NCBI GenBank assembly: GCA_963779755.1
Contig: CAVZZO010000003.1
Span: forward strand, 1,756,782 to 1,820,781
Source of the DNA: an uncultured Gemmatimonadales bacterium
Lineage (GTDB): Bacteria > Gemmatimonadota > Gemmatimonadetes > Gemmatimonadales > GWC2-71-9
Direction: 5' to 3'
DNA: 64,000 nucleotides
The notes under the pieces were generated by a model. The model was not told the origin of the DNA and made no database searches. It saw only the letters and a program-made list of their open reading frames with translations. The translations under genes and the position numbers were made by a program. Of the stretch, positions 27,060 to 43,264 are shown piece after piece. Each line of letters opens with the position of its first letter. The stretch's first letter is position 1.

Positions 27060-29705
27060 CTATTTACCGCCCACCAGCCGCTCGAATCGTGGGTTACCCC
27101 TGAGCGGCGCAAACGTCGGGTCGATCCGCAGCCAGCCGGGCGAGAGATAGTACGGCATCTTGAGCAGCGGCTCCAGCAGGTCCAGCGCCTTTTCCGGTTC
27201 ACCCACGAGCAAGTAGATGCGAACCAGCTGGTGCTGGTTGTAGGTGCCGCCAAACGCTTCCTGACTGGGCGGCGAAAGCGCGAGTCCGCGTTTGCCTTCG
27301 GCGATCGCCTCCGCCTTCCGGCCGAGATAGGCCAGCGCCAGTCCCAGGAACATGTGTCGCTGGGCATTGTCCGGCGTTGCCTGCAGCTGCTCCACGAAGG
27401 CCTGCCGGGCAGAGTCGGCGTAGATCCTGGCCTTCCCGAGGTTCCCCCGGACATACTCGGTCTCGGCCCGGACGATGCCCCAGGTGGCCCGGTCGTTGTC
27501 AAAGGCGCTCGGGGACAGAGTGAGGAGTTGCTGCTGCTGGGCATCGTCCAGCACCCAGTAGAGATCCCAGAAGTTGCCGAAGACGACGAGCAGAGAGGCA
27601 GAATCGGTGGTGGTCAGGGCCGAGCGCACTATCTCCCGGGCACCGGGAAGGTCGCCCTGGGCCAGGTCCAACATCGCCCGGTTCTCGATGACCGCCAGGT
27701 TGGCCGGGGCAAGCGCAAGAGCCCGATCCATCCAGGACCTGGCCTCGTCGTAGCGGCGCAGCCAGAGCAGCGTAAACCCGGTACGCCGTACCGTGACGGC
27801 CGAGCGCGGGTCGAGGGTTCCTGCCCTGATGAAGTGCTCCCGCGCCGATTCCCAGCGACCCAGACTCTGCTCCGCCAATGCCGCGCTTCCCAGCAAATCC
27901 ACATTCGCGGGCGCCAGCTTGAGCCCAGCCTCAAATGCCTGGAGGGCGCGCCGGCTGTCGCCCGACACGAAGGCATAGTAGCTCCCGAGCGCCAGTTGTC
28001 CCTCAGGACGGGCGGGCCCGAGCTGCTGCGCCCGCTCGGCCGCGTTCCGGGCTTGCTCCGCCAGCGCCGGCAGGGGCGTGCTGTTGGTGTAGAGGAGCGA
28101 TCTTGCCCGGGCCAGTTGAGCCCAGGCCGGAACGAACGACGGGTCGAGGTTCACCGCCTGCTCGTAGGAGGCAATCGCTCGCCGCAGGCTCGGCACATCG
28201 CTGGCCGACATGGCCTGTGAAGCCGCTTCACCTTTGAGGAACGCATCGTAGGCGGCGAGATTCGCCGTGGGCTTGGCCGCCAGCTCCTCCCGCACGCTGT
28301 CGCCCAGCGCCACATTGAGCGCACTTGCTACCCGGCCGGCGATGTCGGCCTGCACCTGAAACACGTCGGTGAGCGAGGCGTCGAATGCCTGTTGCCACTT
28401 GGTGGTGGGCGTCGCCCCCGGCTCGACCTGCACCAGTTCCGGACTCACCCGCACCCGGCTCGGACCATCGGCCGGCTTCTCCCAACGCACCGTCGCGGTC
28501 AGAAGGTACTCCGCGCCCAGCTCCCGTGCGATATCCTGGGGGGACTTGCCGCTATGCCGGTATTCGTTGGAGCTGGCCCGCGCGATCACGGCCAGACCAG
28601 CGAGCTGAGAAAGCTTCCCCCGCACCTCGTCGGTGATCCCGTCGGCAAAGTAGGCGTCGGCCGAATCGCCCATATTATCGAAAGGCAGCACGGCGATCCG
28701 CTTCGGCCCCAGCGCGCTGCTCGAGCCGCCCCGGCTGCTGCGCCAGGCGAAGAGCACGCCCACGCCAATCAGAAAGCCGAGCAGGAGCAGCATCGCCGCG
28801 GTGGGCAGGCGTCGCTGTCGGCCCTGGCCTGGTGCGGAGACCGGCACGGGAGCGGCGGCCTTCGGGACCGTGCCGGCGGGGAGCCGGAGTGCGCGGGCCA
28901 ACTCCCCGGCGCTGGCAAACCGGTCGGCGGGAAGCGTCGCCAGCGCCCGCTGAATCGCCTGATCCACCGCCTCGGGCACGCTGGCGCGCAAGCTGTGCAC
29001 GCTCGGCGCCTCCTCGGTCAACCGCCGGGCGATGATCGCCTGGACGGTGGGGCCGCTGAACGGCGGCTCGCCCACCAGCATTTCATAGAGCACACAGCCC
29101 AGGGAGTAGATATCGGTCCGGACATCCAGCGCATGCTCGCCGCTCGCCTGCTCCGGGCTCATGTAGGCCGGGGTGCCGATGCTGATGCCCGTTTCGGTCA
29201 GCCGCTCTCCACCCGCCACCGCCCGGGCAATCCCGAAATCGGCCACCAGAGTGGATCCGTCCCGGGTGAGCAGGAGGTTCTCCGGCTTGATATCCCGATG
29301 TACCACCCCGTGCTCGTGGGCGTACTGCAGCCCCTGGGCCGCCTCCCGGGTGATCCGCAGGGCTTCCTCCACGGAAAGCTGACGCTCCCGGTGCAGCCGG
29401 TCCCGCAGCGATTCACCCTCCACGAACGGCATGGTGAACCAGAGATAGCCTGCCGTCTCCCCCGAATCGTGAACCGCAAGGATATGGGGGTGCTGCAGCC
29501 GGGCGGCCAGCCGGATCTCCTGCTGGAACCGCTCGGGCCCCAGGGTGGCGGCGAGCTCGGGGTGCAGGACCTTGAGGGCGACCGGGCGGTCATGCTTCAG
29601 GTCGTGGGCGAGATAGACCGTGGCCATCCCCCCGCGCCCAAGCTCACGCTCGAGGCGGTAACGGTCGCGAAGACCCTCGGCCAGTGCCGCAGGTAGCTCG
29701 TTCAA
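27060..29705 (-). CDS. Hanks-type Ser/Thr kinase-TM-TolB_N-TPR
   Basis: GRGGMATVY, HRDIKPEN, DFG, IAVLPFDN; start uncertain (TTG 29705). Confidence 0.92.
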   Translation of the reverse strand: MNELPAALAEGLRDRYRLERELGRGGMATVYLAHDLKHDRPVALKVLHPELAATLGPERFQQEIRLAARLQHPHILAVHDSGETAGYLWFTMPFVEGESLRDRLHRERQLSVEEALRITREAAQGLQYAHEHGVVHRDIKPENLLLTRDGSTLVADFGIARAVAGGERLTETGISIGTPAYMSPEQASGEHALDVRTDIYSLGCVLYEMLVGEPPFSGPTVQAIIARRLTEEAPSVHSLRASVPEAVDQAIQRALATLPADRFASAGELARALRLPAGTVPKAAAPVPVSAPGQGRQRRLPTAAMLLLLGFLIGVGVLFAWRSSRGGSSSALGPKRIAVLPFDNMGDSADAYFADGITDEVRGKLSQLAGLAVIARASSNEYRHSGKSPQDIARELGAEYLLTATVRWEKPADGPSRVRVSPELVQVEPGATPTTKWQQAFDASLTDVFQVQADIAGRVASALNVALGDSVREELAAKPTANLAAYDAFLKGEAASQAMSASDVPSLRRAIASYEQAVNLDPSFVPAWAQLARARSLLYTNSTPLPALAEQARNAAERAQQLGPARPEGQLALGSYYAFVSGDSRRALQAFEAGLKLAPANVDLLGSAALAEQSLGRWESAREHFIRAGTLDPRSAVTVRRTGFTLLWLRRYDEARSWMDRALALAPANLAVIENRAMLDLAQGDLPGAREIVRSALTTTDSASLLVVFGNFWDLYWVLDDAQQQQLLTLSPSAFDNDRATWGIVRAETEYVRGNLGKARIYADSARQAFVEQLQATPDNAQRHMFLGLALAYLGRKAEAIAEGKRGLALSPPSQEAFGGTYNQHQLVRIYLLVGEPEKALDLLEPLLKMPYYLSPGWLRIDPTFAPLRGNPRFERLVGGK

Positions 29706-29937
29706 GGGGAAGAGGTGGAGATGACTGGAATATGCACGCAGCCCATGGCCCGCCGCCACTTTGGGCTGGACAGCGGCAGGCGGGGGAACACCCGGTTCGT
29801 AGCCGCCTGGCCCGCCGGCCACGAGGATTCACCAGTGTGCGGGGATCATCATACCGGTTTGCAGGTGGCGTTGGACTGAACACCCCTCACCCCGGCGGGG
29901 GGTTGTCCGGCCACCTGGTCCGTCGCCATGCAGCCGC

Positions 29938-32920
29938 CTACCAGCTCTTGTCCGCGCACGCCACCTTCACGCCGGCCGGCTGCTGCCCCGCCAGCGTGGT
30001 GCAGGACCCCCACCCGATCACCTTCCAGTCGTCGTAGTTCCGGTAAGGCAGATCGGCGATGCCGTCGGCATGGGGGCGCACCGTCACCTGGTACAGCGAG
30101 TTGGGATGATCGCCCGCGTTGGGAATGGCATAGGATTGGGCGGCGCGCAACGCGACCTCGCCCGGTTGGAGCAGATCCACCCCGAAGGCAAAAGACCAGA
30201 TGTTGTCGAACCACGAATCGAGCCCGATGCGCAGGGTACCCGCGGCGTCCACATAGGACATCTCCATGCGTACCGGATCGGGATTGCTCGCGCCCTCCAC
30301 CGGATCCGCGTAGCGGATATAGAGGATGTAGAGCCGTCCGTAGGTCGAGGGCACTGCGGTGGAGAGGGGTGAGGCAAGCACAGCCGGGCTCACGGGGCGC
30401 GGCCGGTCCGCCGCCCGGTGCGCCGAGTCTGGGGGTGCGGCAGCCGGCCGTCCGGCGCCTGGGGCGACGGCGAGATCGCCAGTCGACGAAAGCGTGTTGC
30501 CCGGAGCCGCGCCCACCCAGGCCAGCGCCGGCCTGCCGGTGGCGCCCCACATGGGGCCGTAGGGAATGCCGAGGCGCGCCCACCCGTGCGCCGGCAGCTG
30601 GCCCGGCGCGTAGAGCTGGACGTACCGGTTGGTGTCGATCACCGCTGCCACCAGATGCTCCCGCCCGGCCGCCAGCCCGATGGGAAGCCAGGTGAACGCC
30701 AGGGCGGGCGAGGCGGTGGGCGACATTACCAGCGGCTGCCCGCCCACCGTCATGGTCTGCTCGGCCTGGAAGGTGGCGGGCGAGCGGTAGCGATAGCGCA
30801 CCACGTTGTCCTGACCCCGATAGGCCAGCACCACGGTCTTGCCGTCCGCCGAGACGGCAAGCGACGGCTCGCCCGCGGCCGGAGCGGCGGGAATGGAGTC
30901 CACCGCTCCCCAGACGAAGAGCCCGCCCTGTTCCTCCACCCAGGTTTCGAAGAGCGATCCGTTGGGCCGGATGCCCACGATGAGAATGAGCGGGCGGTTG
31001 TTCACCCGGATGGTGGCGGCATCCACCGCGGTCATCGCACCCAGGTCGCGCACGCCGGGCGTCACGAAGGAAAGGTTGGGGCAATCGTCCACTGCATTGC
31101 AGGTATAGGGGGTGGGCGTGTAGCTGAACGCCAGCTTGCCGGCCAGCGTCACCGAGAATACCCAGAGATGGTCCCGGAACCGCACCAGCGCCGGGCCGGC
31201 CTGGCTCAGCATCCCCACCTGCGTCTCGCCTTCGCGGGTGAATTCGCAGCCGCCGCCGTTCCCCGGCTGCAGGTTGGCGTAGGCCCGCACCGTAGCGCCG
31301 GCCGGCGCGAATTGGTTGTCGCGGTTCCAGTCCACGCTCCCGGTGGCCGAGTCCACCTTGTAGTAATATTGCTGCACCAGGGTACGGAGCAGCCCGCCGT
31401 AGGCGGCGTCGATCGCGCCGGTCTCCGTCAGGGCATGGTTGTTGAGGGTGGGGAACTTGCTGCCGTCCGAGAACTGCCACAGTCCCGAATTGAGGTAGGC
31501 GTAGTTCATCAGGCTGGGGTAGTTCGGCTTGCAGTTGGGCTCGTGCAGGCCGTTGGGCCCGTTGTGATCGAGGCCCAGCGTGTGGCCGAACTCGTGCGCC
31601 GAATTGCCGGCGTTCGCCATGTTGAACCCGCAGGCGATGCCGTAGCCGCAGGAGCCGCCGCCGGTGGTGTAACCCAGCACATAGTGGAACATGCCCCAGC
31701 GCCCGGGGCTCATCTCCCGGGGCCAGGCGCCGCCCGGCGTCTGCGGCTGGTAGTTCCCCTGGGCATCGGGCACCGCGTCAACCGCGGTATATCCGCCCCA
31801 GTCGCCGTAGATCGTGGCATCGGCCGGCGTGAGCGGCGGCACGCCGGTATCGAGGTGCAGGCTCACCCCGGGCCGGCGGTCGGGGTTGTTGACGCTGAGG
31901 GAGTGTACCACCTGGAGCAGCGGATCGGTGGTGGCGGTATCGGCGTAGATCCCGGCCATCTGCCGAGCCACCATGGGGCTCATGTGCTCCGCCACGCCGT
32001 TGATGCTGTCTGCCTGGGTCAGGCGGCGGAAATCCACCTCGGCGAAGATGTCCTTGTGCCGGGGATCGGCGCCCCAGGCGGGGAGCGCTACGTCTTCGTG
32101 AACCCGGGCCCCGGCGGGATTGGTGTATACGGTATCCCGGCCCAGGACCTCCCAGCCGTCCCACAGGCCGTCGCCGTCGGTGTCGCGCGGATCGGGGATA
32201 TCCCTGCACTCCACCCCGGCCACCGAGCCGCTGGTCGAGCCGCAGGTACCCAGGGCAAACTCGAGTGCGTCCCCCAGGCCGTCGCCGTCGCTGTCGTGGC
32301 CGGCGTCGTTGCGGTAGACCGTGATGGGCGCGTCGGCGGCCGGGAGGCGGGTTCCGTACACCAGTTGCACGTTCCGGCCCTGGGGGAGGGGCAGCCGAGT
32401 CGTGCGGCCGGCCGCGCGGGAGAGAATGTCCAGCCCATCCGCGCTGGTCAGGTATGCCAGGTGGCTGGGCGACCCGTTGGGCGGCTCGATGCCCCGCGCC
32501 TCCTCGCCCGACGCGATGCCGGTCAGGGCGATCACCGCGCCGGAGGAGAAGGGCAGCGCGGCCTGGATCCGCCGGCCGTCCAACCAGACGTCGCCGGTCT
32601 GCACCGCGTCCGGCGTGCGCGAGCGCACCACGATGGTCACCGTCCCGGTGGTGCTTCCGGGGAAGGAAACGCTCAGTTGCCCGTTGCTCGCGACGCCGCG
32701 CGCCAGTTGCGCGCCGGAACCGGCCAGAGGAGTTGAGCACCGGATCGGCCGCCGCGGTGAAGTTGCGCAACTCCACCAGGTGCTGCCCGGACTTCGCATG
32801 GAGGGTTGGCCATACTTCGCCCACGGGCGGAAGGGGCGAGACATTGAAGATCCTCGTCTGGGCCGCCAGCGGCGACACGGCGGCGGCCAGCAGGAGAAGA
32901 AGCGGAAACGTGCGCGGCAT
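29938..32920 (-). CDS. Secreted metzincin-like protease with DxDxDG Ca-binding repeats, frameshift near 32730
   Basis: Signal peptide MPRTFPLLLLLAAA; DSDGDG and DTDGDG; HEFGHTLGLDH; SLMNY Met-turn. Confidence 0.8.
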
Positions 32921-33123: not shown

Positions 33124-35169
33124 CTACCGTGCCGTTTCCTTTCCGGCCTGCCGCGCCGCCCGCCATTCGTCCCGGGCGAGACGTTTCACGTCAATCCCGT
33201 GCTTCAGTTTCAGCGTGGCCTCGGTCATGAACAGGGCGGCGTCCACTCCCGTCTCCACCGCCAGGTAGTCGTCGATCCATTGCTGGCGTTCGGGGTACTC
33301 GGCGGTCAGGATCACGTTGAGCAACGCGACCTGCAGGAACCCGATCTGGGTGGAGGTCGGCGGGTACTCGGTGACCGCCCGATCCAGGTAGAGCCCCCGG
33401 CGCCTGGCCATCCGCAGTTCCGACCGGCGGATCATGAGGTCGTCCCGGCTGTCGTCGTCCGCCTCGCAGGGGAGCGGATCCGGATTCGGAGCCGGATCGG
33501 GCAGCGAGAGCGGCGCGTCGCTGCGGGGGGCTGTGAGCGGCAGCAGCTTCAGGAAATCCGCGGCGGCCTGATCCCGGTCGGTGAGATGCCCGATCCCACA
33601 CAGGGTCTCCACCGTTTTCAGCATGGAGGTGTGATCGTAGGTGGTGTGGTCGATCACGCCCCGGCGGGTATAGGGCGAGATCACCAGGGCGGGCACGCGG
33701 ACGCCGAGCTGGTCGAACTGGAAGCCGAACTGCGAGTAGGCCGCCGTCTCCAGGTCGCCCGGGGGCACCGCCGGCCCCGGCGGGGCATGATCGAAAAACC
33801 CTCCGTGCTCATCGAAGGTGACCAGCAGGAGGCTGTGCTCCCAGTGCGGCGAATTGCGGATCGCCTCGTAGACGTCCTTGATGAGGCGCTCGCCCCGGGT
33901 CACATCGTCCAGCGGGTGCATCGAGTTGCCGCAGGCAAAGTCGCCCGGGCCGGTGACGTCGAACTTGTGGGCCCCGTACTTCGGCTCGATAAAGACGAAC
34001 TTGTAGCCGAAGGCCTCCGACTGGACCTCGGACGCGAAATCCTCGAAGTCCTTGAAGCGCCCCTGGAGCCGGTTCAGGTTCATGCCCTTCATGGCGAAAC
34101 TGACCGGGAAATCGTCCCCCTCATAGATCCGCCAGGGAATGCAGTTGGCGTCCAGCAGGTCGAAGATGTTGCCGTTTTCGAACCGGTACCCTTCCACCGT
34201 GGTGGAGGTCACCACGTCCCACTTGTCCGGACTCCCGTCCAGGCCGCCCGAGGTGCCTGCCAGCAGAAAGAAGCGGTTGGGCCAGGTGGGCCCGGGCAGC
34301 GAGGAGAACCACTGGTCGCACACCGCGAACTCCCGGGCCAGGCGGTTGAGCACCGGCAGCTGCTCGGGGGAGAAGCAGCGCATGATCCGTTCGGGGGTGG
34401 GCGATCCGTTGTCCCGGTAGTTGGCGATGAACCCGGAGTTGTTCACCGGAGGATACCCGCCAGGCACCGGGTTGTAGACGGCCCCCTCCCCGCACAGCGC
34501 CACCACCGTCTCCTTGAACTCGTGGCCCGGATCCTTGTCCACCCCTTTCAGCTGAAAATCGGCCGGGCTGCTGACCAGCACCGGCAGCCCCGTGATGGGG
34601 TTGATGTTGCTGGTGGCGAGCGGGTCGAACCCGGGGTTGAATACGGTGGGATTGCCGTCGGGATCCACTCCGGCGATGCCGCTGAAGCCCAGCATGTGAT
34701 CGAAGCTCCGGTTCTCCAGCATCAGGACAAAGACGTGCTCGATGCGCGGCGGCCTCCCTTTCCCCCGTCCGAAGAGCGACCCGATCGCGCGGATCAGTCC
34801 GAGCAGGGCGCACCGCAGCGTGTCCCACGCCACGCAGACCAGCTGCAGCGCCCACGAGAAGACGACGCAGAACGCCTTCACCACCCAGGCGAAGGCCTTG
34901 CAGACCCACTTCGCCACCCAGTACCAGGCCTTGCACACCCACTTGGCCACCCAGTAGTACGCCCGGCAGAAGAACCCGGCGATACAGTTCCACGGCGTGT
35001 ACCAGTGGCACTTCTCCCAGGACGTACAGTGACTCGACCCCTCGTCGGCCCATTCCGAGCACTGATTCGACCCTTCGTCGGCCCAGCTGGTGCACTCGTA
35101 ATCGACCTGCGAACTCCAGTTCTTGCAGGTAATGACGAAGGTGTCGACCCATTTGGTGCAGGTGGCCAT
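33124..35169 (-). CDS. Phosphoesterase (phospholipase C/acid phosphatase family) with Cys/Trp-rich N-terminal domain
   Basis: MLENRSFDH, GPTWPNR, FDEHGGFFDH, GVRVP, YDHTS. Confidence 0.9.
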   Translation of the reverse strand: MATCTKWVDTFVITCKNWSSQVDYECTSWADEGSNQCSEWADEGSSHCTSWEKCHWYTPWNCIAGFFCRAYYWVAKWVCKAWYWVAKWVCKAFAWVVKAFCVVFSWALQLVCVAWDTLRCALLGLIRAIGSLFGRGKGRPPRIEHVFVLMLENRSFDHMLGFSGIAGVDPDGNPTVFNPGFDPLATSNINPITGLPVLVSSPADFQLKGVDKDPGHEFKETVVALCGEGAVYNPVPGGYPPVNNSGFIANYRDNGSPTPERIMRCFSPEQLPVLNRLAREFAVCDQWFSSLPGPTWPNRFFLLAGTSGGLDGSPDKWDVVTSTTVEGYRFENGNIFDLLDANCIPWRIYEGDDFPVSFAMKGMNLNRLQGRFKDFEDFASEVQSEAFGYKFVFIEPKYGAHKFDVTGPGDFACGNSMHPLDDVTRGERLIKDVYEAIRNSPHWEHSLLLVTFDEHGGFFDHAPPGPAVPPGDLETAAYSQFGFQFDQLGVRVPALVISPYTRRGVIDHTTYDHTSMLKTVETLCGIGHLTDRDQAAADFLKLLPLTAPRSDAPLSLPDPAPNPDPLPCEADDDSRDDLMIRRSELRMARRRGLYLDRAVTEYPPTSTQIGFLQVALLNVILTAEYPERQQWIDDYLAVETGVDAALFMTEATLKLKHGIDVKRLARDEWRAARQAGKETAR

Positions 35170-35172
35170 GGG

Positions 35173-35517
35173 CTACTCTCCTTCCGGAGCGAATCGGAGA
35201 CGCAGGCGGCGATAGAGCAGGGCCAGGCGAAGGCGGGCAAGCGCGATCCCGGTCAGCTTGCCGGCGATGCCGGCGCCGAAGATCAGGGCCAGGCCGCGCA
35301 GCAGGACGCCGGCGAGATGGGCGGTAGGGAACCCGCGCAGCATCAGCGTGAATACGCAGAAGCCCAGAGCCGCTGCCAGGAAGACGCCGCCCATCCGGCA
35401 GCCGCATTCGGTGCGATAGGCTTCCGCGCGCCGGACGTAGGGCAACAGGCGGTGCCGCTCGTCCGGAAGGGAACGGAGCAGACGGTCGAGGACGGGCTCG
35501 CCGCGCCGGGCCGTCAC
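35173..35517 (-). CDS. Small two-TM protein with CGC motif
   Basis: ECGCRMGG followed by two hydrophobic helices; coupled to neighbours. Confidence 0.65.
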   Translation of the reverse strand: MTARRGEPVLDRLLRSLPDERHRLLPYVRRAEAYRTECGCRMGGVFLAAALGFCVFTLMLRGFPTAHLAGVLLRGLALIFGAGIAGKLTGIALARLRLALLYRRLRLRFAPEGE

Positions 35518-36205
35518 GGATAGACCGGGAGGCCGGGTGAGACGATACCGAGGTGCGCCACCCGCGCCAGCAGTTCCGCCGCCTGGCTGGCCACCGGTGT
35601 ATCGACGAGGCCCTCCGTGCTCCCGAACTCCAGCAGCTCCCGCAACCCGGCAAAATTCCGTGCGGCCGCATGCCGGCGCAGGCCCATCGCGAACAGCAGG
35701 CCGGCGAGACTGTCGCGCTCCCTGTCGGTGACCGACTCCATCTCGGTGCGCCAGTGCGCCGATTTCCCGTCCCCATCCAGCCGCCAGGGGCGCATATTGA
35801 AATCGCTGACGAAGATCATCGCGTGGGTGAAGGCGTAGAAATCATCGCTTCCGCCGTTCAGCCGATCCATGGGCCGGCACAGCACCGACTCGCGTGCCTC
35901 GCGTGGCGCGGAGGGACGGCGTCGTGGTGCGATGGGCGTCGGGTGGGACTGCAGACCGCGCCAGCGGCGAGATGCTGGATGGCACGTCCCGCCAGGTCGA
36001 GCGCGTCACCCAGCCGCCGCGCCAGATCCGCCTTCGCCCAGCGTCGTGGCTGGGCGGCCATAACCGCTCAGGCGCCGCCTGCGGCCCCTCGGAGTTCTCC
36101 AGACAACTGGCTCAGTCGGGAGAGGTTCGCCACCGATGAGCCGAACGGTCCTATTTCGATGGTGGGATGAGGGACGATCTCTTGATGCGTGACGCGGGTG
36201 GCCAT
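35514..36205 (-). pseudogene. Fragmented hypothetical gene, tentatively DUF6895-like
   Basis: GGAGGAG RBS and ATG 36205; protein-like segments WAKADLARRLGDALDLA and DFYAFTHAMIFVSDF in different frames. Confidence 0.45.
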
Positions 36206-36553: not shown

Positions 36554-37159
36554 TTAGTGCCTCGCTGCAATCCTCGCCGTCCTGCTACCCACTGTTGGTC
36601 TGCCCGCATCCTTCTCCAATGGTCGGTGTGTTGCCCTCCCGCCCGTTGTCCCCGCCGCGCCCGCGGTCAGGACATCGAGGTTCCGTGCAGGGAGGAAGAG
36701 AGCATCCAGCCGCCGGTAGCTTGCCTCCATGCCATGTTCCATGCCGATCGCCAGTATGGCGGCCCGGGCGCCGGCATCCGGCAGGGTCATCCGCAGGGTC
36801 ATCAGGGTCCCGGAAGCATCGGGCTCGAATCGCGTTTCGATGTGATTATCCGGCGTAGGATCGGGCAGGAACATCCGCTCCACGTGCACGATCTTCCGGT
36901 GGGGCTCCAGCTCGAGATACTCCCCCGTGAGGTAGAACTCCTGGCCCTCATCGTTCCTCCATTCGTAGCGGATCGTGCCGCCGGGCCGGGCCTCACTGAT
37001 ACAGATCGGCATGGTCCAGCCATCCGGGCCAAGACACCACTGCCGGACGAACTCGGGATCGGTGTGGGCCTGGTACACCGCCTGGGGCGAGGCGGCAAAG
37101 CGCCTGGTCATCACCATGTGGGTTTCGCCTTCGGTCTTCAGCGTCAGACCGCCCATCAT
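36554..37159 (-). CDS. SRPBCC/AHSA1-like protein, paralogue of 38940-39407
   Basis: Near-identical protein (ERMFLPDPTPDNHIETRF, GMEHGMEASY); C-terminal extension doubtful. Confidence 0.85.
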   Translation of the reverse strand: MMGGLTLKTEGETHMVMTRRFAASPQAVYQAHTDPEFVRQWCLGPDGWTMPICISEARPGGTIRYEWRNDEGQEFYLTGEYLELEPHRKIVHVERMFLPDPTPDNHIETRFEPDASGTLMTLRMTLPDAGARAAILAIGMEHGMEASYRRLDALFLPARNLDVLTAGAAGTTGGRATHRPLEKDAGRPTVGSRTARIAARH

Positions 37160-37270
37160 CGGCCTCGCTTTCCTGTGGCTGGCTGTTCCGGGGCCGCGAG
37201 AACCCGGTCCAGCCGGTTGTAGTCCTGCTCCAGGGCGTTGCGCAGCAGGGCCGGCCACTGGCTCATGGTC
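37156..37270 (-). pseudogene. 3' remnant of the duplicated ArsR gene
   Basis: Aligns by eye with 39404-39520. Confidence 0.75.
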
Positions 37271-37348
37271 CAGGGGTCCACTTCCTCCCGATCCGGGCAC
37301 GTCTGGTCTCCCGGTGCGGGGGATTGTCGACCCTGCTCTCTCCTTTAT

Positions 37349-38939: not shown

Positions 38940-39407
38940 TCAGAGCATCTTCTCCAGCCGCTGGTAACTCGCTTCCATGCCGTGCTCCATGCCGGTCTCC
39001 AGCATTGCCTTGCGTGTCCCGGCATCGGGCAGTGTCATCCGCATGGTCATGAGCGTGCCGCTGCCGTCGGGCTCGAAGCGCGTCTCGATATGGTTATCCG
39101 GCGTCGGATCGGGCAGGAACATCCGTTCGATATGGACCAGTCTGCGGTTGGCCTCCACCTCGAGATATTCCCCGGTGAGATAAAAGCCGTTGCCCTGGCC
39201 GTCCGACCACTCGTAGCGGATCTTGCCGCCGGGGCGCACCTCGTTGGTGCAGACCGGCATGGTCCAGCCTTCGGGGCCGAGCAGCCACTGCTGGAGCAGT
39301 TCGGGATCGGTGTGAGCCCGATACACCGCCTCGGGCGGCGCGGCGAAACGCCTGGTCACGATCACGTGGGTGTCGCCTTCGGTCTTTAGCGTCAGACTGG
39401 CCATCAT
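38940..39407 (-). CDS. SRPBCC/AHSA1-like protein
   Basis: TRRFAAPPEAVYRAHTDP; coupled to ArsR. Confidence 0.9.
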   Translation of the reverse strand: MMASLTLKTEGDTHVIVTRRFAAPPEAVYRAHTDPELLQQWLLGPEGWTMPVCTNEVRPGGKIRYEWSDGQGNGFYLTGEYLEVEANRRLVHIERMFLPDPTPDNHIETRFEPDGSGTLMTMRMTLPDAGTRKAMLETGMEHGMEASYQRLEKML

Positions 39408-39754
39408 CGGCCTCTCTTTCCCGTTGCAGGCTGTTCCAGGTTCGCGAGGATCCGGTCCAGCCGGTTGTAGTTCTGCTCCAGGGCCTTTCTCAGCATTGCC
39501 AGCCACTGGTCCATGGCTTCAACCCCGGCCTTGGCCAGACGGCGCGGCCGCCTGTTGCCTTCCACCCGGCTCACGATCAGCCCCGCGTCTTCCAGCACCT
39601 TCAGATGCTGGGAGATGGCGGGCTGGCTCATCTCGAACGGCTGCGCCAGATCCTTCACGGTGGCTTCCCCGCGCGCCAGACGGGCCAGGATGGCCCGGCG
39701 GGTGGGGTCGGCCAGGGCCGCAAAGGCGGCGTCGAGGTTGGGCGCGGCTTTCAT
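39404..39754 (-). CDS. ArsR/SmtB family regulator
   Basis: ALADPTRRAIL, SQPAISQHLKVLEDAGL. Confidence 0.93.
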   Translation of the reverse strand: MKAAPNLDAAFAALADPTRRAILARLARGEATVKDLAQPFEMSQPAISQHLKVLEDAGLIVSRVEGNRRPRRLAKAGVEAMDQWLAMLRKALEQNYNRLDRILANLEQPATGKRGR

Positions 39755-40945: not shown

Positions 40946-43264
40946 TCAGGTCCCGGTCAACCGACTGGCCAATGCGAGAAACCGGGGTTCCTTCCGGAGC
41001 GGCGCCAGTCGGGGATCGATCAGCAGGTACGCCAGCACCGTCGAACGCTCCTCGTACGCCCGTTCCAGCCCGCGCAGCGCCATGTCCCGCTCGCCCAGGC
41101 CGGCGTAGACCAGGGCGACAAAGTAGGACGACACGTAGCTCGTGTCGGACTGCGCCTGCAGATCGGCGAGCATCTGGCGCGCGCGTGCCGGCTGTCCAGC
41201 TACCCCGTAGGCATGCGCCAGCGATGACCGCCGATTGGGGCTGTCGCCGCCGAGCCGCTCGAGGATCGCGATCGCGTCCGCCATCCGGCCCTGCTGTTCC
41301 TCCACCAGGGCGAGTCCCCACAGAGCCAGGGTGTTACTCGAGTCTCCCCGCAGCACCGCGCGCAGCGACCGCTCGGCGTCATCGTACCGGCCGGCGAAGT
41401 AGTCGAGAAGCGCGCGATTCGGCGGCAGCGAGGTGTCCAGCGGATCCAGCTCCTCGGCGCGGCCAACCTCCGCAATAGCCTCGTCCAGCCGGCGGCGAGA
41501 CGCGAGGAAGCGACCGTACGACATGTAGGCATCGGCGTAGCTGGGCTGCAGCTCGAGCGCCCGCCGGAACTCGGCCTCGGCGGCGCGCCAGTCCCAATCG
41601 AAGTATGCCTGCAGGTATGCGTTGATCGCGTGGGCCTCGGCCAGGCCATCGTCCAGTTCCAGCGCACGCGCCAGCGCGGCGCGGGCCTGAGGCAACACGG
41701 CGGCCGGCGCGACATCGGTCGCGAACGGCAGGGTGACGTAGTAGTTCGCCACCCCGACATAGGGCGGCGCCCAGTCCGGCGCCAGGCGGCTGGCTTCCTC
41801 GAACAGCGTGTGCGCCCGCTCGAGCTCGCCCTGCCCGAGGGAGAACCGGCCGCGCAGATAGGCCTCGTAGGCGCGCTGGTCCACCGGTTGGCGGACGGCG
41901 AGCCGGCGGCGTTCGCCGCTGGCCAGCCGCGCGCCCAGGGCCCGGCCGACATCCGTGGTGATCTGCCGCTGAAGATCCGGAAGCTCGCCCAGACGGCGCC
42001 GGTAGTCCCGTGCGAAGATCTGCTTCTCCTCCGGGACGCGCTGCAGCCGCACCGTAACCAGCACGCTGTCGCCCGAGCGGCTGACGGATCCCTGCAGCAC
42101 CGCCTGCACGCCGAGCGCTCCCGCGATCTCGGCGGGGGAACGGGTCATCTGCTGTACCGTGGCGGCCGACGCGCGGGAGATCACCTTCAGGGTTCCGATC
42201 GCCGCGAGGTCGGTCACCAGGCCGTCCGTCACTCCGTCCGCCAGGTACGAGGAGTCGGGACTGGCACCGGGATCCTGGAAGGGCAGCACCGCGACGGCGG
42301 AGATGCCATGAGACGCGCTGAAAAGAGTCCGTCCCCGCGCGACGCCCCACAACACCGCCACCGCCAGCGCCACCGCCACCACGGCAGTGGCCCACCGCGG
42401 CCAGAGAACCCGGCGGTCGCCGCGGGCGGGCGGCGGACCCGCACCCTCGAGCGCCTCCAGGAACTGCTGCATTGTCGCAAAGCGCAGGGACGGGTCCTTG
42501 GCCATGCCGCGCGCAACGGCCCCGTCCACCACGCGCGGCACCTCGGGCCGCGTGGCGATCAGGCTCGGCACCGGGTCAACCGAATGCTGGGCGATGAGCG
42601 CCAGCGCGGTCTCGCCAGTATACGGCGGCCGCCCGCTCAAGGCCTCATACAGAGTGCAGGCAAGGCTGTACTGGTCGCAGCGGCCGTCGAGCGCCGTACC
42701 GGTCGCCTGCTCCGGACTCATGTATTGCGGCGTGCCGATGGCGAGGCCGGTCTGGGTGAGCCGGTCAGCACCCGCCGCCTGGACCGCGCGGGCGATGCCG
42801 AAGTCGGCGACCAGGGCCTGGTCGCCCACCAGCATCACATTCTCTGGTTTGATGTCCCGGTGGATGATGCCACGCTCGTGGGAATACTGGAGCGCCGAGG
42901 CCACGTCGCGGCCGATGCCCAGCGCAACCGCGAGCGGCAGCCTGGTCTCGCGCTGGAGGCGCTGCCGCAGGGATTCGCCCTCGACGAACGCCATCACATA
43001 GTACAGCAGCCCGTTCCCCTCGCCCGAGTCGTAGAGCGGCACGATATGGGGATGCTGGAGGCCGGCGGCGATGCGGATCTCACGCAGGAAGCGGTCTCCG
43101 CCCAGAACGGCCGACAGCTCGGGGCGCAGAACCTTCACCGCCACCCGCCGGTCGTGTTTCAGGTCCTGGGCGAGGAAAACGACCGCCATGCCTCCCTGGC
43201 CGAGCTCACGCTCGACCCGGTACCGGCCGGTAAGGGCCGCAGCCAGCTGCTGGTGCAGGTCCAT
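40946..43264 (-). CDS. Hanks-type Ser/Thr kinase-TM-TolB_N-TPR
   Basis: GQGGMAVVF, HRDIKPEN, DFG, VAVLPFQ. Confidence 0.92.
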   Translation of the reverse strand: MDLHQQLAAALTGRYRVERELGQGGMAVVFLAQDLKHDRRVAVKVLRPELSAVLGGDRFLREIRIAAGLQHPHIVPLYDSGEGNGLLYYVMAFVEGESLRQRLQRETRLPLAVALGIGRDVASALQYSHERGIIHRDIKPENVMLVGDQALVADFGIARAVQAAGADRLTQTGLAIGTPQYMSPEQATGTALDGRCDQYSLACTLYEALSGRPPYTGETALALIAQHSVDPVPSLIATRPEVPRVVDGAVARGMAKDPSLRFATMQQFLEALEGAGPPPARGDRRVLWPRWATAVVAVALAVAVLWGVARGRTLFSASHGISAVAVLPFQDPGASPDSSYLADGVTDGLVTDLAAIGTLKVISRASAATVQQMTRSPAEIAGALGVQAVLQGSVSRSGDSVLVTVRLQRVPEEKQIFARDYRRRLGELPDLQRQITTDVGRALGARLASGERRRLAVRQPVDQRAYEAYLRGRFSLGQGELERAHTLFEEASRLAPDWAPPYVGVANYYVTLPFATDVAPAAVLPQARAALARALELDDGLAEAHAINAYLQAYFDWDWRAAEAEFRRALELQPSYADAYMSYGRFLASRRRLDEAIAEVGRAEELDPLDTSLPPNRALLDYFAGRYDDAERSLRAVLRGDSSNTLALWGLALVEEQQGRMADAIAILERLGGDSPNRRSSLAHAYGVAGQPARARQMLADLQAQSDTSYVSSYFVALVYAGLGERDMALRGLERAYEERSTVLAYLLIDPRLAPLRKEPRFLALASRLTGT

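Follow-up and report, generated by a model that had tools for sequence, protein, structure and literature searches.

How a phospholipase without a classical signal peptide could be held at a membrane is the question raised by one gene in the 64,000-nucleotide (nt) stretch of contig CAVZZO010000003.1, from an uncultured Gemmatimonadales bacterium, the whole of which is referred to below as the window. This gene (33124..35169, minus strand, as given in the list of open reading frames, or ORFs) encodes a protein of 681 amino acids (aa) that combines an N-terminal ladder of regularly spaced cysteines, predicted to fold into a helical hairpin, with an NPC/phospholipase C (PLC)-type phosphoesterase domain and a probably helical C-terminal region. 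Similar ladders adjoin many other enzymes, their two arms lengthen and shorten in step, and ladders located at the N-terminus are nearly always accompanied by a gene for a small membrane protein with a C-G-C motif. The ladder domain and this partner appear to constitute an undescribed two-gene module, for which we tentatively favor a role in membrane tethering.

The ladder protein begins with M-A-T-C, and direct reading of the translation places residues 1-120 at 34810..35169 (this and all other features of the protein lie on the minus strand). An earlier reading of the letters of this DNA (hereinafter, the original prediction) had noted the lack of a classical signal peptide, which holds, the ladder being already under way at residue 4. 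By direct count, the ladder cysteines occupy residues 4, 15, 26, 37, 48 and 54 in one half and 62, 68, 79, 90, 101 and 112 in the other, with gaps of 11, 11, 11, 11 and 6, then 8, then 6, 11, 11, 11 and 11, and the six nested pairs each total 116. The recount reproduces the 12 positions, the sums of 116 and the 11-residue period of the original prediction, which, however, overlooked a 13th cysteine, C120, located 8 residues past C112 within 34810..35169. This cysteine has no mirror partner, is invariant in an alignment of 124 family members, and is preceded by the same terminal gap of 8 in 120 of the 120 PLC homologues listed. Arm 1 (residues 4-53; 35011..35160) consists of polar and acidic C-x-x-W-A-D-E-G-S-x-x units that start at Cys 4, 15, 26, 37 and 48. 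The tip (residues 54-67; 34969..35010), with Cys 54, Cys 62 and Pro59, overlaps a stretch, 47-58, that is non-helical in the structural model; the cysteine gaps across it are 6-8-6 (C48-C54-C62-C68), compared with 1-5-4, 7-1-5-4-7, 10 or 8 in other ladder families. Arm 2 (residues 68-112; 34834..34968), which begins its units at Cys 68, 79, 90, 101 and 112, is rich in Trp, Tyr, Phe, Val and Lys and falls within a predicted helix, 59-133, the last part of which (residues 113-133; 34771..34833) would extend past the N-terminus of arm 1 and carries the unpaired C120. A basic linker of Gly, Pro, Arg and Lys follows (residues 134-142; 34744..34770), modeled as coil with a predicted local distance difference test score (pLDDT) of 56-57, the net charge being +3 over residues 135-145. 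The net charge is -6 for arm 1 (residues 1-53) and +6 for arm 2 (residues 68-111), in agreement with the acidic and polar character of the former and the basic and aromatic character of the latter in the original prediction.

The same cysteine spacing is kept in all 120 listed of 400 PLC homologues and in distant families as well; given this conservation, the pattern can be taken to lie far beyond chance. At the DNA level, the arm-1 units 26-36 and 37-47 share 25 of 33 nt and the arm-2 units 68-78 and 79-89 share 26 of 33; because of these values, the units are best regarded as old repeats rather than recent duplications. That repeats might be gained and lost in both arms together, another expectation attached to this ladder from the outset, is borne out by unit counts, by a tree and by an alignment. 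The 120 listed PLC homologues contain 4+4, 5+5 or 6+6 units around a constant 6-8-6 tip, with arms unequal by one in five of them (P0005, P0069, P0061, P0114 and P0038). Among the 270 complete two-arm ladders parsed from all stored proteins under a strict count of exact 11-residue gaps, 224 have equal arms, namely, 2+2 (4), 3+3 (53), 4+4 (106), 5+5 (46), 6+6 (12), 7+7 (2) and 11+11 (1), compared with a mean of 79 and a maximum of 100 when the right arms were shuffled 2000 times; the arms differ by one unit in 29 ladders and by more in 17, in several cases owing to a single gap of 10 or 12. Because relatives share states, the changes were also mapped onto a FastTree phylogeny of 122 PLC-family catalytic domains from which the ladder was excluded. 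On this tree, the left arm changes 24 times and the right arm 25 times but the combined state changes just 28 times, and of 14 phylogenetically independent pairs with unlike left arms, about 12 have right arms that differ in the same direction, about 2 have right arms that do not differ, and none has right arms that differ in the opposite direction (sign test, median p 0.0005). Paired insertions are also seen directly in the alignment A2, where P0260 and P0258 have gained one unit in each arm and P0300 has gained two in each. The 17 complete ladders that form a single run with no distinct tip comprise 13 of odd and 4 of even length, with 5 (four ladders), 4 (three), 9 (three), 13 (two), and 7, 11, 1, 6 and 3 units (one each). 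The correlated changes could also stem from recombination that swaps whole ladders; even so, the ladders that are retained are near-symmetric only.

The antiparallel hairpin of the original prediction is supported by predicted helices and by covariation. AlphaFold2, run with 124 sequences, yields a helix at 3-46, a non-helical tip at 47-58 and a helix at 59-133, with a mean pLDDT of 76.5 and values of 84-88 in the arm blocks. In an analysis of mutual information with average product correction on 84 distinct 4+4 ladders (effective number 55), the leading column pairs are 11-108, 10-108, 14-108 and 10-105, with sums of 115-122, and 8 of the 20 top inter-arm pairs fall within 4 of the sum 116, against a background of 16.7% (binomial p 0.011), which is modest support for the predicted register of 116. 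On an 11/3 helical wheel, the seam consists of Cys1, Gly8 and Ala5 in arm 1 and of Cys1 and Ala8 in arm 2, small residues that would permit close approach of the arms; outside the seam, arm 2 is hydrophobic (Trp4, Trp6, Trp10, Val7, Val11, Ala3) and arm 1 polar. Because a slightly underwound helix completes three turns in 11 residues, the cysteines of one arm should lie on a straight line, and because the spacing is mirrored, each should be level with its partner; on this geometric argument, each arm-1 cysteine is predicted to face an arm-2 cysteine, flanked by the small residues Gly, Ala and Ser. Foldseek detected no match in the PDB at E-values up to 0.001, the hits being generic helical hairpins only, and the best match in a wide fold search with VIA (Z 10.5) stays under the value of about 13 stated as background for helical models. 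A beta-hairpin or beta-solenoid was considered for the 11-residue period and discarded: the model is all-helical, and an odd period would alternate the faces of a strand on which the cysteines lie.

The ladder corresponds to no named domain that we could find, as had been suspected originally. There are no families over the ladder at E-values up to 1 in the 2025 copy of Pfam-A or the 2026 copy of NCBIfam, whether residues 1-125 or 1-135 are used, no matches among PDB sequences at E-values up to 1, no usable match in the ESM Atlas, and no description of the ladder domain or of the C-G-C protein in the open-access and bioRxiv literature searched. Relatives, on the other hand, are numerous. A word-indexed search found the 400 proteins with this ladder at the N-terminus, the 120 listed each containing PF04185, and an exhaustive phmmer search over 1.84 billion cluster representatives gave 137 matches at E<=0.001, 47 of them at 1e-10 or better. 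These matches represent clusters at 50% identity, of which 136 were used. The excluded one, P0184 (888 aa), is an unrelated Cys-rich protein with a different cysteine repeat, a strict 52-residue super-repeat in about 15 copies with cysteine gaps of 4, 5, 6, 12, 5, 5, 6 and 9; its score against the ladder (E 2.5e-8) is probably compositional. Among the 136, the ladder is N-terminal in 76, C-terminal in 33 and internal in 11, the other 16 being fragments, and the first cysteine lies at residue 3-6 in 65 of the 76 N-terminal ladders.

The ladder is joined in its homologues to proteases, lipases, glycosidases, oxidases and Kelch propellers, so the fusion to other enzymes that was to be looked for according to the original prediction is indeed found. 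A Pfam family could be assigned in 41 of the 136 representatives, with the best-matching stretch never on the ladder: PF04185 in 15, Kelch or glyoxal-oxidase-like domains in 8, Peptidase_S8, GH16 and GH1 in 3 each, Lipase_3 and FAD/ALO oxidase in 2 each, and M64, GDSL lipase, DUF4474, GDPD and Reprolysin_5 in 1 each. In another family, of about 370 aa, the ladder is followed by an HExxH-type motif. Judging by record titles, the hosts of the PLC form include Gemmatimonadales (90% identical), Lysobacterales, Bacteroidetes, Streptosporangiaceae, Hypericibacter, Pyrinomonadaceae, Chloroflexia, Anaerolineae, Streptomyces hiroshimensis, Caulobacter and others, the whole set spanning 43-90% identity, and one ladder protein of non-PLC type is labeled Ignavibacteriae. 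Because 1 of the 301 sampled genomes of the phylum to which the window belongs, that of the window itself, carries a ladder, the distribution is patchy, as after horizontal transfer; in the same genomes, a convincing copy of the partner gene was likewise found only there. No paralogues of the ladder were detected in the genome of the window by a six-frame scan for the cysteine pattern or in five other host genomes. The ladder query found no match among viral contigs, plasmids and phages, where the low-complexity filter of BLAST may mask such a repeat query, and a search of sequencing runs returned one DNA run with a small share of the query words and no RNA run among the matches listed.

Some variants of the ladder genes are recorded here for their own sake. 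At loci L023-L026, the ladder ORFs end after 109-164 aa with the partner gene still ahead (for example, L025:5860-6246, in the same metagenome-assembled genome as L001); these short ORFs could represent pseudogenes, free-standing ladders or breaks in the assembly, and one metagenome-assembled genome holds a full-length and a short copy together. The start M-P-G-T-W is common to ladder proteins of differing architecture (L029, L031, L034, L103, L105 and L107), among them a PLC type extended by one N-terminal unit and a Kelch type whose ladder is C-terminal, and might be a shared N-terminal feature or a coincidence.

The genomic context of the ladder genes reveals a second component, which the original prediction had overlooked. 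Directly upstream of the ladder gene in the window lies a gene for a protein of 114 aa (35173..35517, minus strand) that consists of a soluble N-terminal part, the C-G-C motif (codons 35398..35406) where the first transmembrane segment (TM1) starts, TM2, a G-K motif (35257..35262) where TM2 ends, and an Arg-rich tail with a charge of +4; the Kyte-Doolittle values of the two hydrophobic segments are 2.2 and 1.88. The stop codon of this gene lies 3 nt ahead of the ladder ATG, and a Shine-Dalgarno-like GGAAGGAGAG located within its end (35176..35185, minus strand, by reading of the sequence), 6 nt ahead of the ladder ATG, points to translational coupling of the two genes. A tblastn search located the partner ahead of the ladder gene in 22 of 34 genome loci. 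Nearly everywhere, the upstream ORFs share a motif that ends in C-G-C before TM1 and G-K-x-x-G...A-R-x-R-L after TM2; exactly six columns are invariant in an alignment of 26 partners, namely, C, G, C, G, K and G. A hidden Markov model built here detected the partner beside the ladder gene in 33 of the 34 genome loci and in 51 of 80 metagenome loci, which had been fetched with the HExxH metalloprotease-type ladder family and its relatives and most of which carry other catalytic domains. Among N-terminal ladders with at least 450 base pairs of flank on both sides, 27 of 28 genome loci and 31 of 34 metagenome loci (58 of 62) have the partner, on the same strand and directly before or after the ladder gene. 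Because the linkage holds across differing catalytic domains, the partner tracks the N-terminal ladder rather than the enzyme. All-against-all clustering of the neighboring ORFs identified no third conserved neighbor.

The partner itself has no match in Pfam, NCBIfam, PADLOC or the PDB and is labeled hypothetical in all sources. All 76 of the 76 distinct partners show the same distribution of Lys and Arg, with means of 3.3 in the 15 residues before TM1, 5.2 in the 20 residues after TM2 and 0.5 in the loop, and 73 of the 76 have at least 4 such residues in the C-terminal flank. Under the positive-inside rule, the predicted topology would be N-in/C-in, which would place the C-G-C and G-K motifs together at the cytoplasmic interface. 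A complex prediction for ladder residues 1-140 with the partner, run without controls, scored 0.00 and counts neither for nor against binding. In several metagenome loci (such as L047, L049, L050, L052, L054 and L058), the partner lies downstream of the ladder gene, and the partners of this subfamily have a conserved C-terminal Cys-Gly, a third conserved and putatively cytoplasmic cysteine, and a longer soluble N-terminal domain of about 80 aa. One metagenome contig contains two CGC-type partner genes around a single ladder gene (L077:3185-3640 and L077:6353-6883). Downstream of a Kelch gene with a C-terminal ladder, there is a multi-pass membrane ORF (L105:4135-5037, plus strand) that is not a CGC protein; ladders of this type may have another partner.

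Behind the ladder, residues 143-525 (33595..34743) match PF04185 over profile positions 1-354 of 356 (E 1.1e-69), with a score of 235.8 bits against a gathering cut-off of 23. The motif blocks E-N-R-x-F-D-H, D-P-x-H-E-F, P-G-P-T-x-P-N-R-F-F and D-E-H-G-G-F-x-D-H, which we take to be the catalytic ones, are all present and are nearly invariant among 124 relatives; because these blocks are intact, the protein looks like an active NPC/PLC-type enzyme. The TIGR03396 equivalog, the phosphocholine-specific PLC of the PlcH/PlcN type, gives 120.4 bits against a cut-off of 580.25, so that the protein stays outside this group. The nearest relative of solved structure is Arabidopsis NPC4 (8hav; E 5.9e-51 over residues 3-421 of the 540-aa catalytic query), and PDB entries whose titles name phospholipase C or acid phosphatase come after it, first at E 1.8e-38 and next at 1e-20 or weaker. 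The remaining C-terminal region (residues 526-681; 33127..33594) is conserved in its consensus across the family and is probably helical, and in the homologue P0136 three C-terminal helices were modeled. NPC4 is described as a plant plasma-membrane enzyme with a three-helix C-terminal domain, tethered by S-acylation (PMC9837106). With this enzyme as the model, the ladder protein would be a bacterial NPC-like PLC that acts on the membrane of its own cell. Bacterial intracellular phospholipases C of another family are described as remodeling lipids under phosphate limitation in the PlcP pathway, a bacterial precedent that serves here as background only (PMC13700237).

With these components in hand, the ladder can be asked where it would reside. 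The Wimley-White interfacial energy is -12.8 kcal/mol for arm 2 and +9.6 kcal/mol for arm 1, the sole hydrophobic stretch of TM grade in the ladder protein lies in arm 2 (residues 96-114, Kyte-Doolittle 2.09 over 19 residues), and in other ladder families arm 2 continues directly into TM-like stretches. The original prediction of a membrane-inserting, targeting or secretion module is therefore plausible in its membrane-related part, given the energetics of arm 2, whereas secretion becomes a rival rather than the best reading. Regarding the side of the membrane, the missing signal peptide, the basic linker behind the hydrophobic part, the predicted inside location of the partner motifs, the ordinary cysteine content outside the ladder (1.1%) and the odd cysteine totals (81 of 112 PLC-family members) support the cytoplasmic face; the analogy with the plasma-membrane-tethered NPC4 and the intracellular phospholipases C of the PlcP pathway would count toward it as well. 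A secreted protein with all cysteines in disulfides, as an even cysteine count would imply, was rejected on the same odd totals. If anything, the evidence on sidedness, that is, the absence of a signal peptide and the inside location of the partner motifs, speaks against an oxidizing compartment for the ladder protein.

The reading that we favor, although we hold it tentatively, is that the ladder is a membrane tether, probably at the cytoplasmic face, that works with the CGC partner. Residues 1-133 would form a hendecad-periodic, antiparallel two-helix hairpin, a two-faced rod in which the acidic, water-facing arm 1 is stapled rung by rung onto the Trp- and Lys-rich, interface-favoring arm 2. 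We infer that arm 2 lies in or on the bilayer, against the two helices of the partner, or both, with arm 1 covering its water side. The cysteine rungs would hold the helices in register, whether by covalent bonds, by metal or by close packing, so the bridge may be a disulfide, a metal or nothing at all; because the rungs are proposed to hold the register, a unit would be gained or lost only in both arms, and the length of the arms would fix that of the rod, changing by one rung in both at once. The extension 113-133 and the basic linker would join the rod to the enzyme and place it beside its lipid substrate, with the unpaired C120 and the partner C-G-C as a candidate contact. The rod would thus hold a soluble NPC-type PLC, and elsewhere other hydrolases or oxidases, on a membrane, likeliest the cytoplasmic face of the producer's own.

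Several observations weigh against a tether at the cytoplasmic face. Twelve strictly conserved, pairwise-facing cysteines resemble disulfides, which are unusual in a reducing cytoplasm. The fused subtilases, GH16, glyoxal/galactose oxidase-like and M64 domains are usually extracellular, and 3 of 40 proteins in which the ladder lies more than 60 residues in have a signal-peptide-like N-terminus, because of which their ladders would lie outside the cytoplasm. The partner is found in just 2 of 12 loci with C-terminal ladders, mostly of the Kelch type, and hence is not needed by every ladder. Finally, the AlphaFold2 model of the 11+11 homologue P0136, based on a 24-row alignment, has helices at 4-126, 128-140, 147-226 and 241-277, but its pLDDT over the ladder is just 33-69, so that it is unusable as support for a hairpin.

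Part of this evidence suits an export or release module, in which the two-TM protein would act as a holin or insertase that frees signal-less enzymes or flips the hairpin, six disulfides then zipping the ladder in an oxidizing compartment. Such a role would account for the lack of a signal peptide in spite of the many fused enzyme types that are normally extracellular, and the few signal-peptide-like starts just mentioned also speak for it. The partner is small, with two TMs and an Arg-rich C-terminus, and is immediately upstream and apparently translationally coupled, which is how holins lie; faint matches to Phage_holin_3_6 (4 of 26 members, best E 0.038) and to a PHROG holin (2 of 26, E 0.047) point in the same direction, and the cassette occurs in monoderm and diderm phyla, as a route independent of the envelope would. 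All the holin matches, however, stay under every threshold, searches with the ladder revealed no viral, plasmid or phage setting, no peptidoglycan hydrolase adjoins the cassette, and the conserved soluble N-terminal domain and the invariant cysteines on the predicted cytoplasmic side of the partner are not holin-like. The ordinary cysteine content outside the ladder and the odd totals are unlike a disulfide-rich secreted enzyme, and S-acylation is what tethers the nearest solved relative to the plant plasma membrane. We therefore consider export unlikely. A more elaborate variant is less likely still, namely, that the ladder and the CGC protein constitute a thiol-driven two-component system in which C-G-C, as a disulfide relay, metal loader or acyl carrier, would close the hairpin one rung at a time and thereby drive the insertion or passage of folded signal-less enzymes, a bacterial counterpart of Mia40 (CPC) and its twin-CX9C clients that would be scalable by rungs.

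The membrane would not be required if the ladder were a soluble oligomerization rod, in which the arm-2 helices of two to four hairpins form a core with the acidic arm 1 outside, so that a rigid stalk of set length multimerizes or spaces the enzymes. About 200 degrees of the arm-2 wheel are hydrophobic and need burial, coiled-coil stalks and bundles are frequent among the hits of the fold searches, and equal arms of variable length suit a spacer. A core of Trp and Lys would be unusual for a bundle by Wimley-White values, however, this combination being typical of membrane interfaces; moreover, the obligate two-TM partner and the TM-like segments behind arm 2 are left unexplained, and the structural matches are all generic, with Z at most 10.5 against the background of about 13. 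To us, such a rod appears quite improbable, and so does a metal or redox ladder, in which each rung would be a two-thiolate site (Cu(I), Hg(II), Zn in a dimer, Fe-S between hairpins) or a redox switch that the CGC partner loads or senses, with the state of the rungs controlling the opening of the hairpin and, through it, membrane binding or activity. The invariant CGC at the predicted cytoplasmic interface is compatible with this possibility, considering that conserved cytoplasmic cysteines are usually metal ligands or redox sensors and that small two-TM proteins with vicinal cysteines, of the MerE/MerF type, are known as metal carriers; furthermore, the tips hold four cysteines within 11-21 residues. 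Successive rungs, nevertheless, would be separated by about 16.5 A (11 x 1.5 A), which is too much for a shared metal, the repeat contains no His or Asp co-ligands, there are no conserved metal-related genes nearby, and a dozen unrelated hydrolases have no evident reason to need such a ladder. Another candidate role for the CGC protein, S-acylation of the ladder, was rejected because it leaves the mirrored cysteines unexplained. A toxin-immunity pair, with the ladder delivering degradative enzymes into or onto competitors and the small membrane protein serving as the immunity factor, would fit a two-gene cassette scattered over phyla at 65-90% identity, the patchiness typical of conflict systems (1 of 301 genomes of its own phylum) and the effector-like repertoire of phospholipases, lipases, proteases and glycosidases, but is very improbable because one would expect immunity to follow the catalytic domain whereas one partner family, found with many different catalytic domains, tracks the ladder, there are no secretion-system genes or polymorphic-toxin features nearby, and PADLOC detected no families in the enzyme, the partner and two neighbors at E-values up to 0.01.

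Several other genes noted around the cassette in the window lie on the minus strand as well. The start of the partner gene is overlapped by 4 nt by a 123-aa ORF (35514..35885) with a match to DUF6895 below the threshold (E 0.004; 17 bits against 23.8) that was found by tblastn in 0 of 34 loci. Directly downstream of the ladder gene is a 968-aa ORF (29938..32844) with a sub-threshold match to the bacterial TSP3 repeat, which is not conserved at the other loci. Two Ser/Thr protein kinases with long TPR regions (27060..29822 and 40946..43264, the second with a weak TolB_N match) flank this area and have counterparts near the cassette in the Pyrinomonadaceae loci L007 and L011, probably by chance. 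Two proteins of the AHSA1/SRPBCC fold (36554..37300 and 38940..39506; E 2e-24 and 1e-27) are encoded less than 3 kb apart.

If these interpretations are valid, the locus adds a protein domain and a two-gene module that are both new, abundant in soil bacteria of at least 8 phyla by record title, and illustrates a rare evolutionary rule whereby the two halves of one fold are duplicated or deleted in step. The putative rods form a natural series of about 3 to 12 rungs that could serve as a test bed for the growth of repeat proteins and, possibly, provide protein designers with a scaffold, in effect a helical ruler that is stapled and greasy on one face. The module also touches on an old puzzle, that many bacterial lipases, phospholipases, proteases and oxidases have no recognizable signal or anchor. 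Should the ladder prove to be a tether, or a non-classical device for insertion or export, it would account for the localization of hundreds of enzymes and suggest a portable tag.

Several known systems can be compared with the module. The partner resembles class II holins in being small, with two TMs, a predicted N-in/C-in topology and a basic C-terminus, and in lying directly upstream of a signal-less hydrolase; it has the small size, at least one TM and the charged C-terminal tail of such proteins, but differs from them in its conserved soluble N-terminal domain with the CGC and GK motifs and in accompanying a domain instead of belonging to a lysis cassette. The alpha-hairpinins or vicilin-buried peptides of plants and the cystine-stapled helical peptides are described as helical hairpins with two nested disulfides (10.1101/2020.05.26.118075, PMC5507927). 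These are small secreted plant peptides of the form CX3C-Xn-CX3C, with two rungs, no expansion and no membrane partner, whereas the ladder arms contain no CX3C pairs; the 1-5-4 tips of other ladder families hold one C-x3-C rather than the twin motif. Repeats of 11 residues that form the 3-11 helix are the lipid-binding elements of apolipoproteins, alpha-synuclein and perilipins, where the 11-residue period keeps one face of the helix straight on the lipid. Arm 2 shares this period and the interfacial composition; 3-11 helices, however, are single, disordered off the membrane and free of cysteines, whereas the ladder would have a polar second helix pinned at each repeat, and Pfam shows no match of the ladder to the apolipoprotein, alpha-synuclein or perilipin families.

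A parallel in layout exists with the CHCH or twin-CX9C proteins, such as Cox17 and COA6, which share the helix-turn-helix hairpin with mirror-placed cysteines on facing helices, joined by nested bridges in CHCH. These proteins have no N-terminal targeting signal. For COA6, one CX10C arm is described, and a partner with a C-x-C-type motif, CHCHD4/Mia40 with its CPC, is described as acting on CHCH proteins. The CHCH proteins are eukaryotic, mitochondrial, stand-alone proteins of about 60-100 aa with two CX9C rungs and no expansion; by contrast, the ladder is bacterial and fused to enzymes, has 3 to 12 rungs per arm with CX10C throughout, in four to eleven repeats, and one hydrophobic arm, shows no sequence similarity to CHCH, and its C-x-C partner is, unlike that of CHCH, an integral membrane protein with the motif predicted to be cytoplasmic. 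The enzyme, for its part, is most comparable to NPC4, with which it shares a PF04185-type domain followed by a C-terminal part that is helical in NPC4 and probably so in the ladder protein. NPC4 is described as having no lipid-binding domain of its own and as needing an added tether to reach the membrane (PMC9837106). In NPC4 that tether is an S-acylated C-terminal cysteine, whereas in the ladder enzyme it would be an N-terminal protein hairpin together with its membrane partner.

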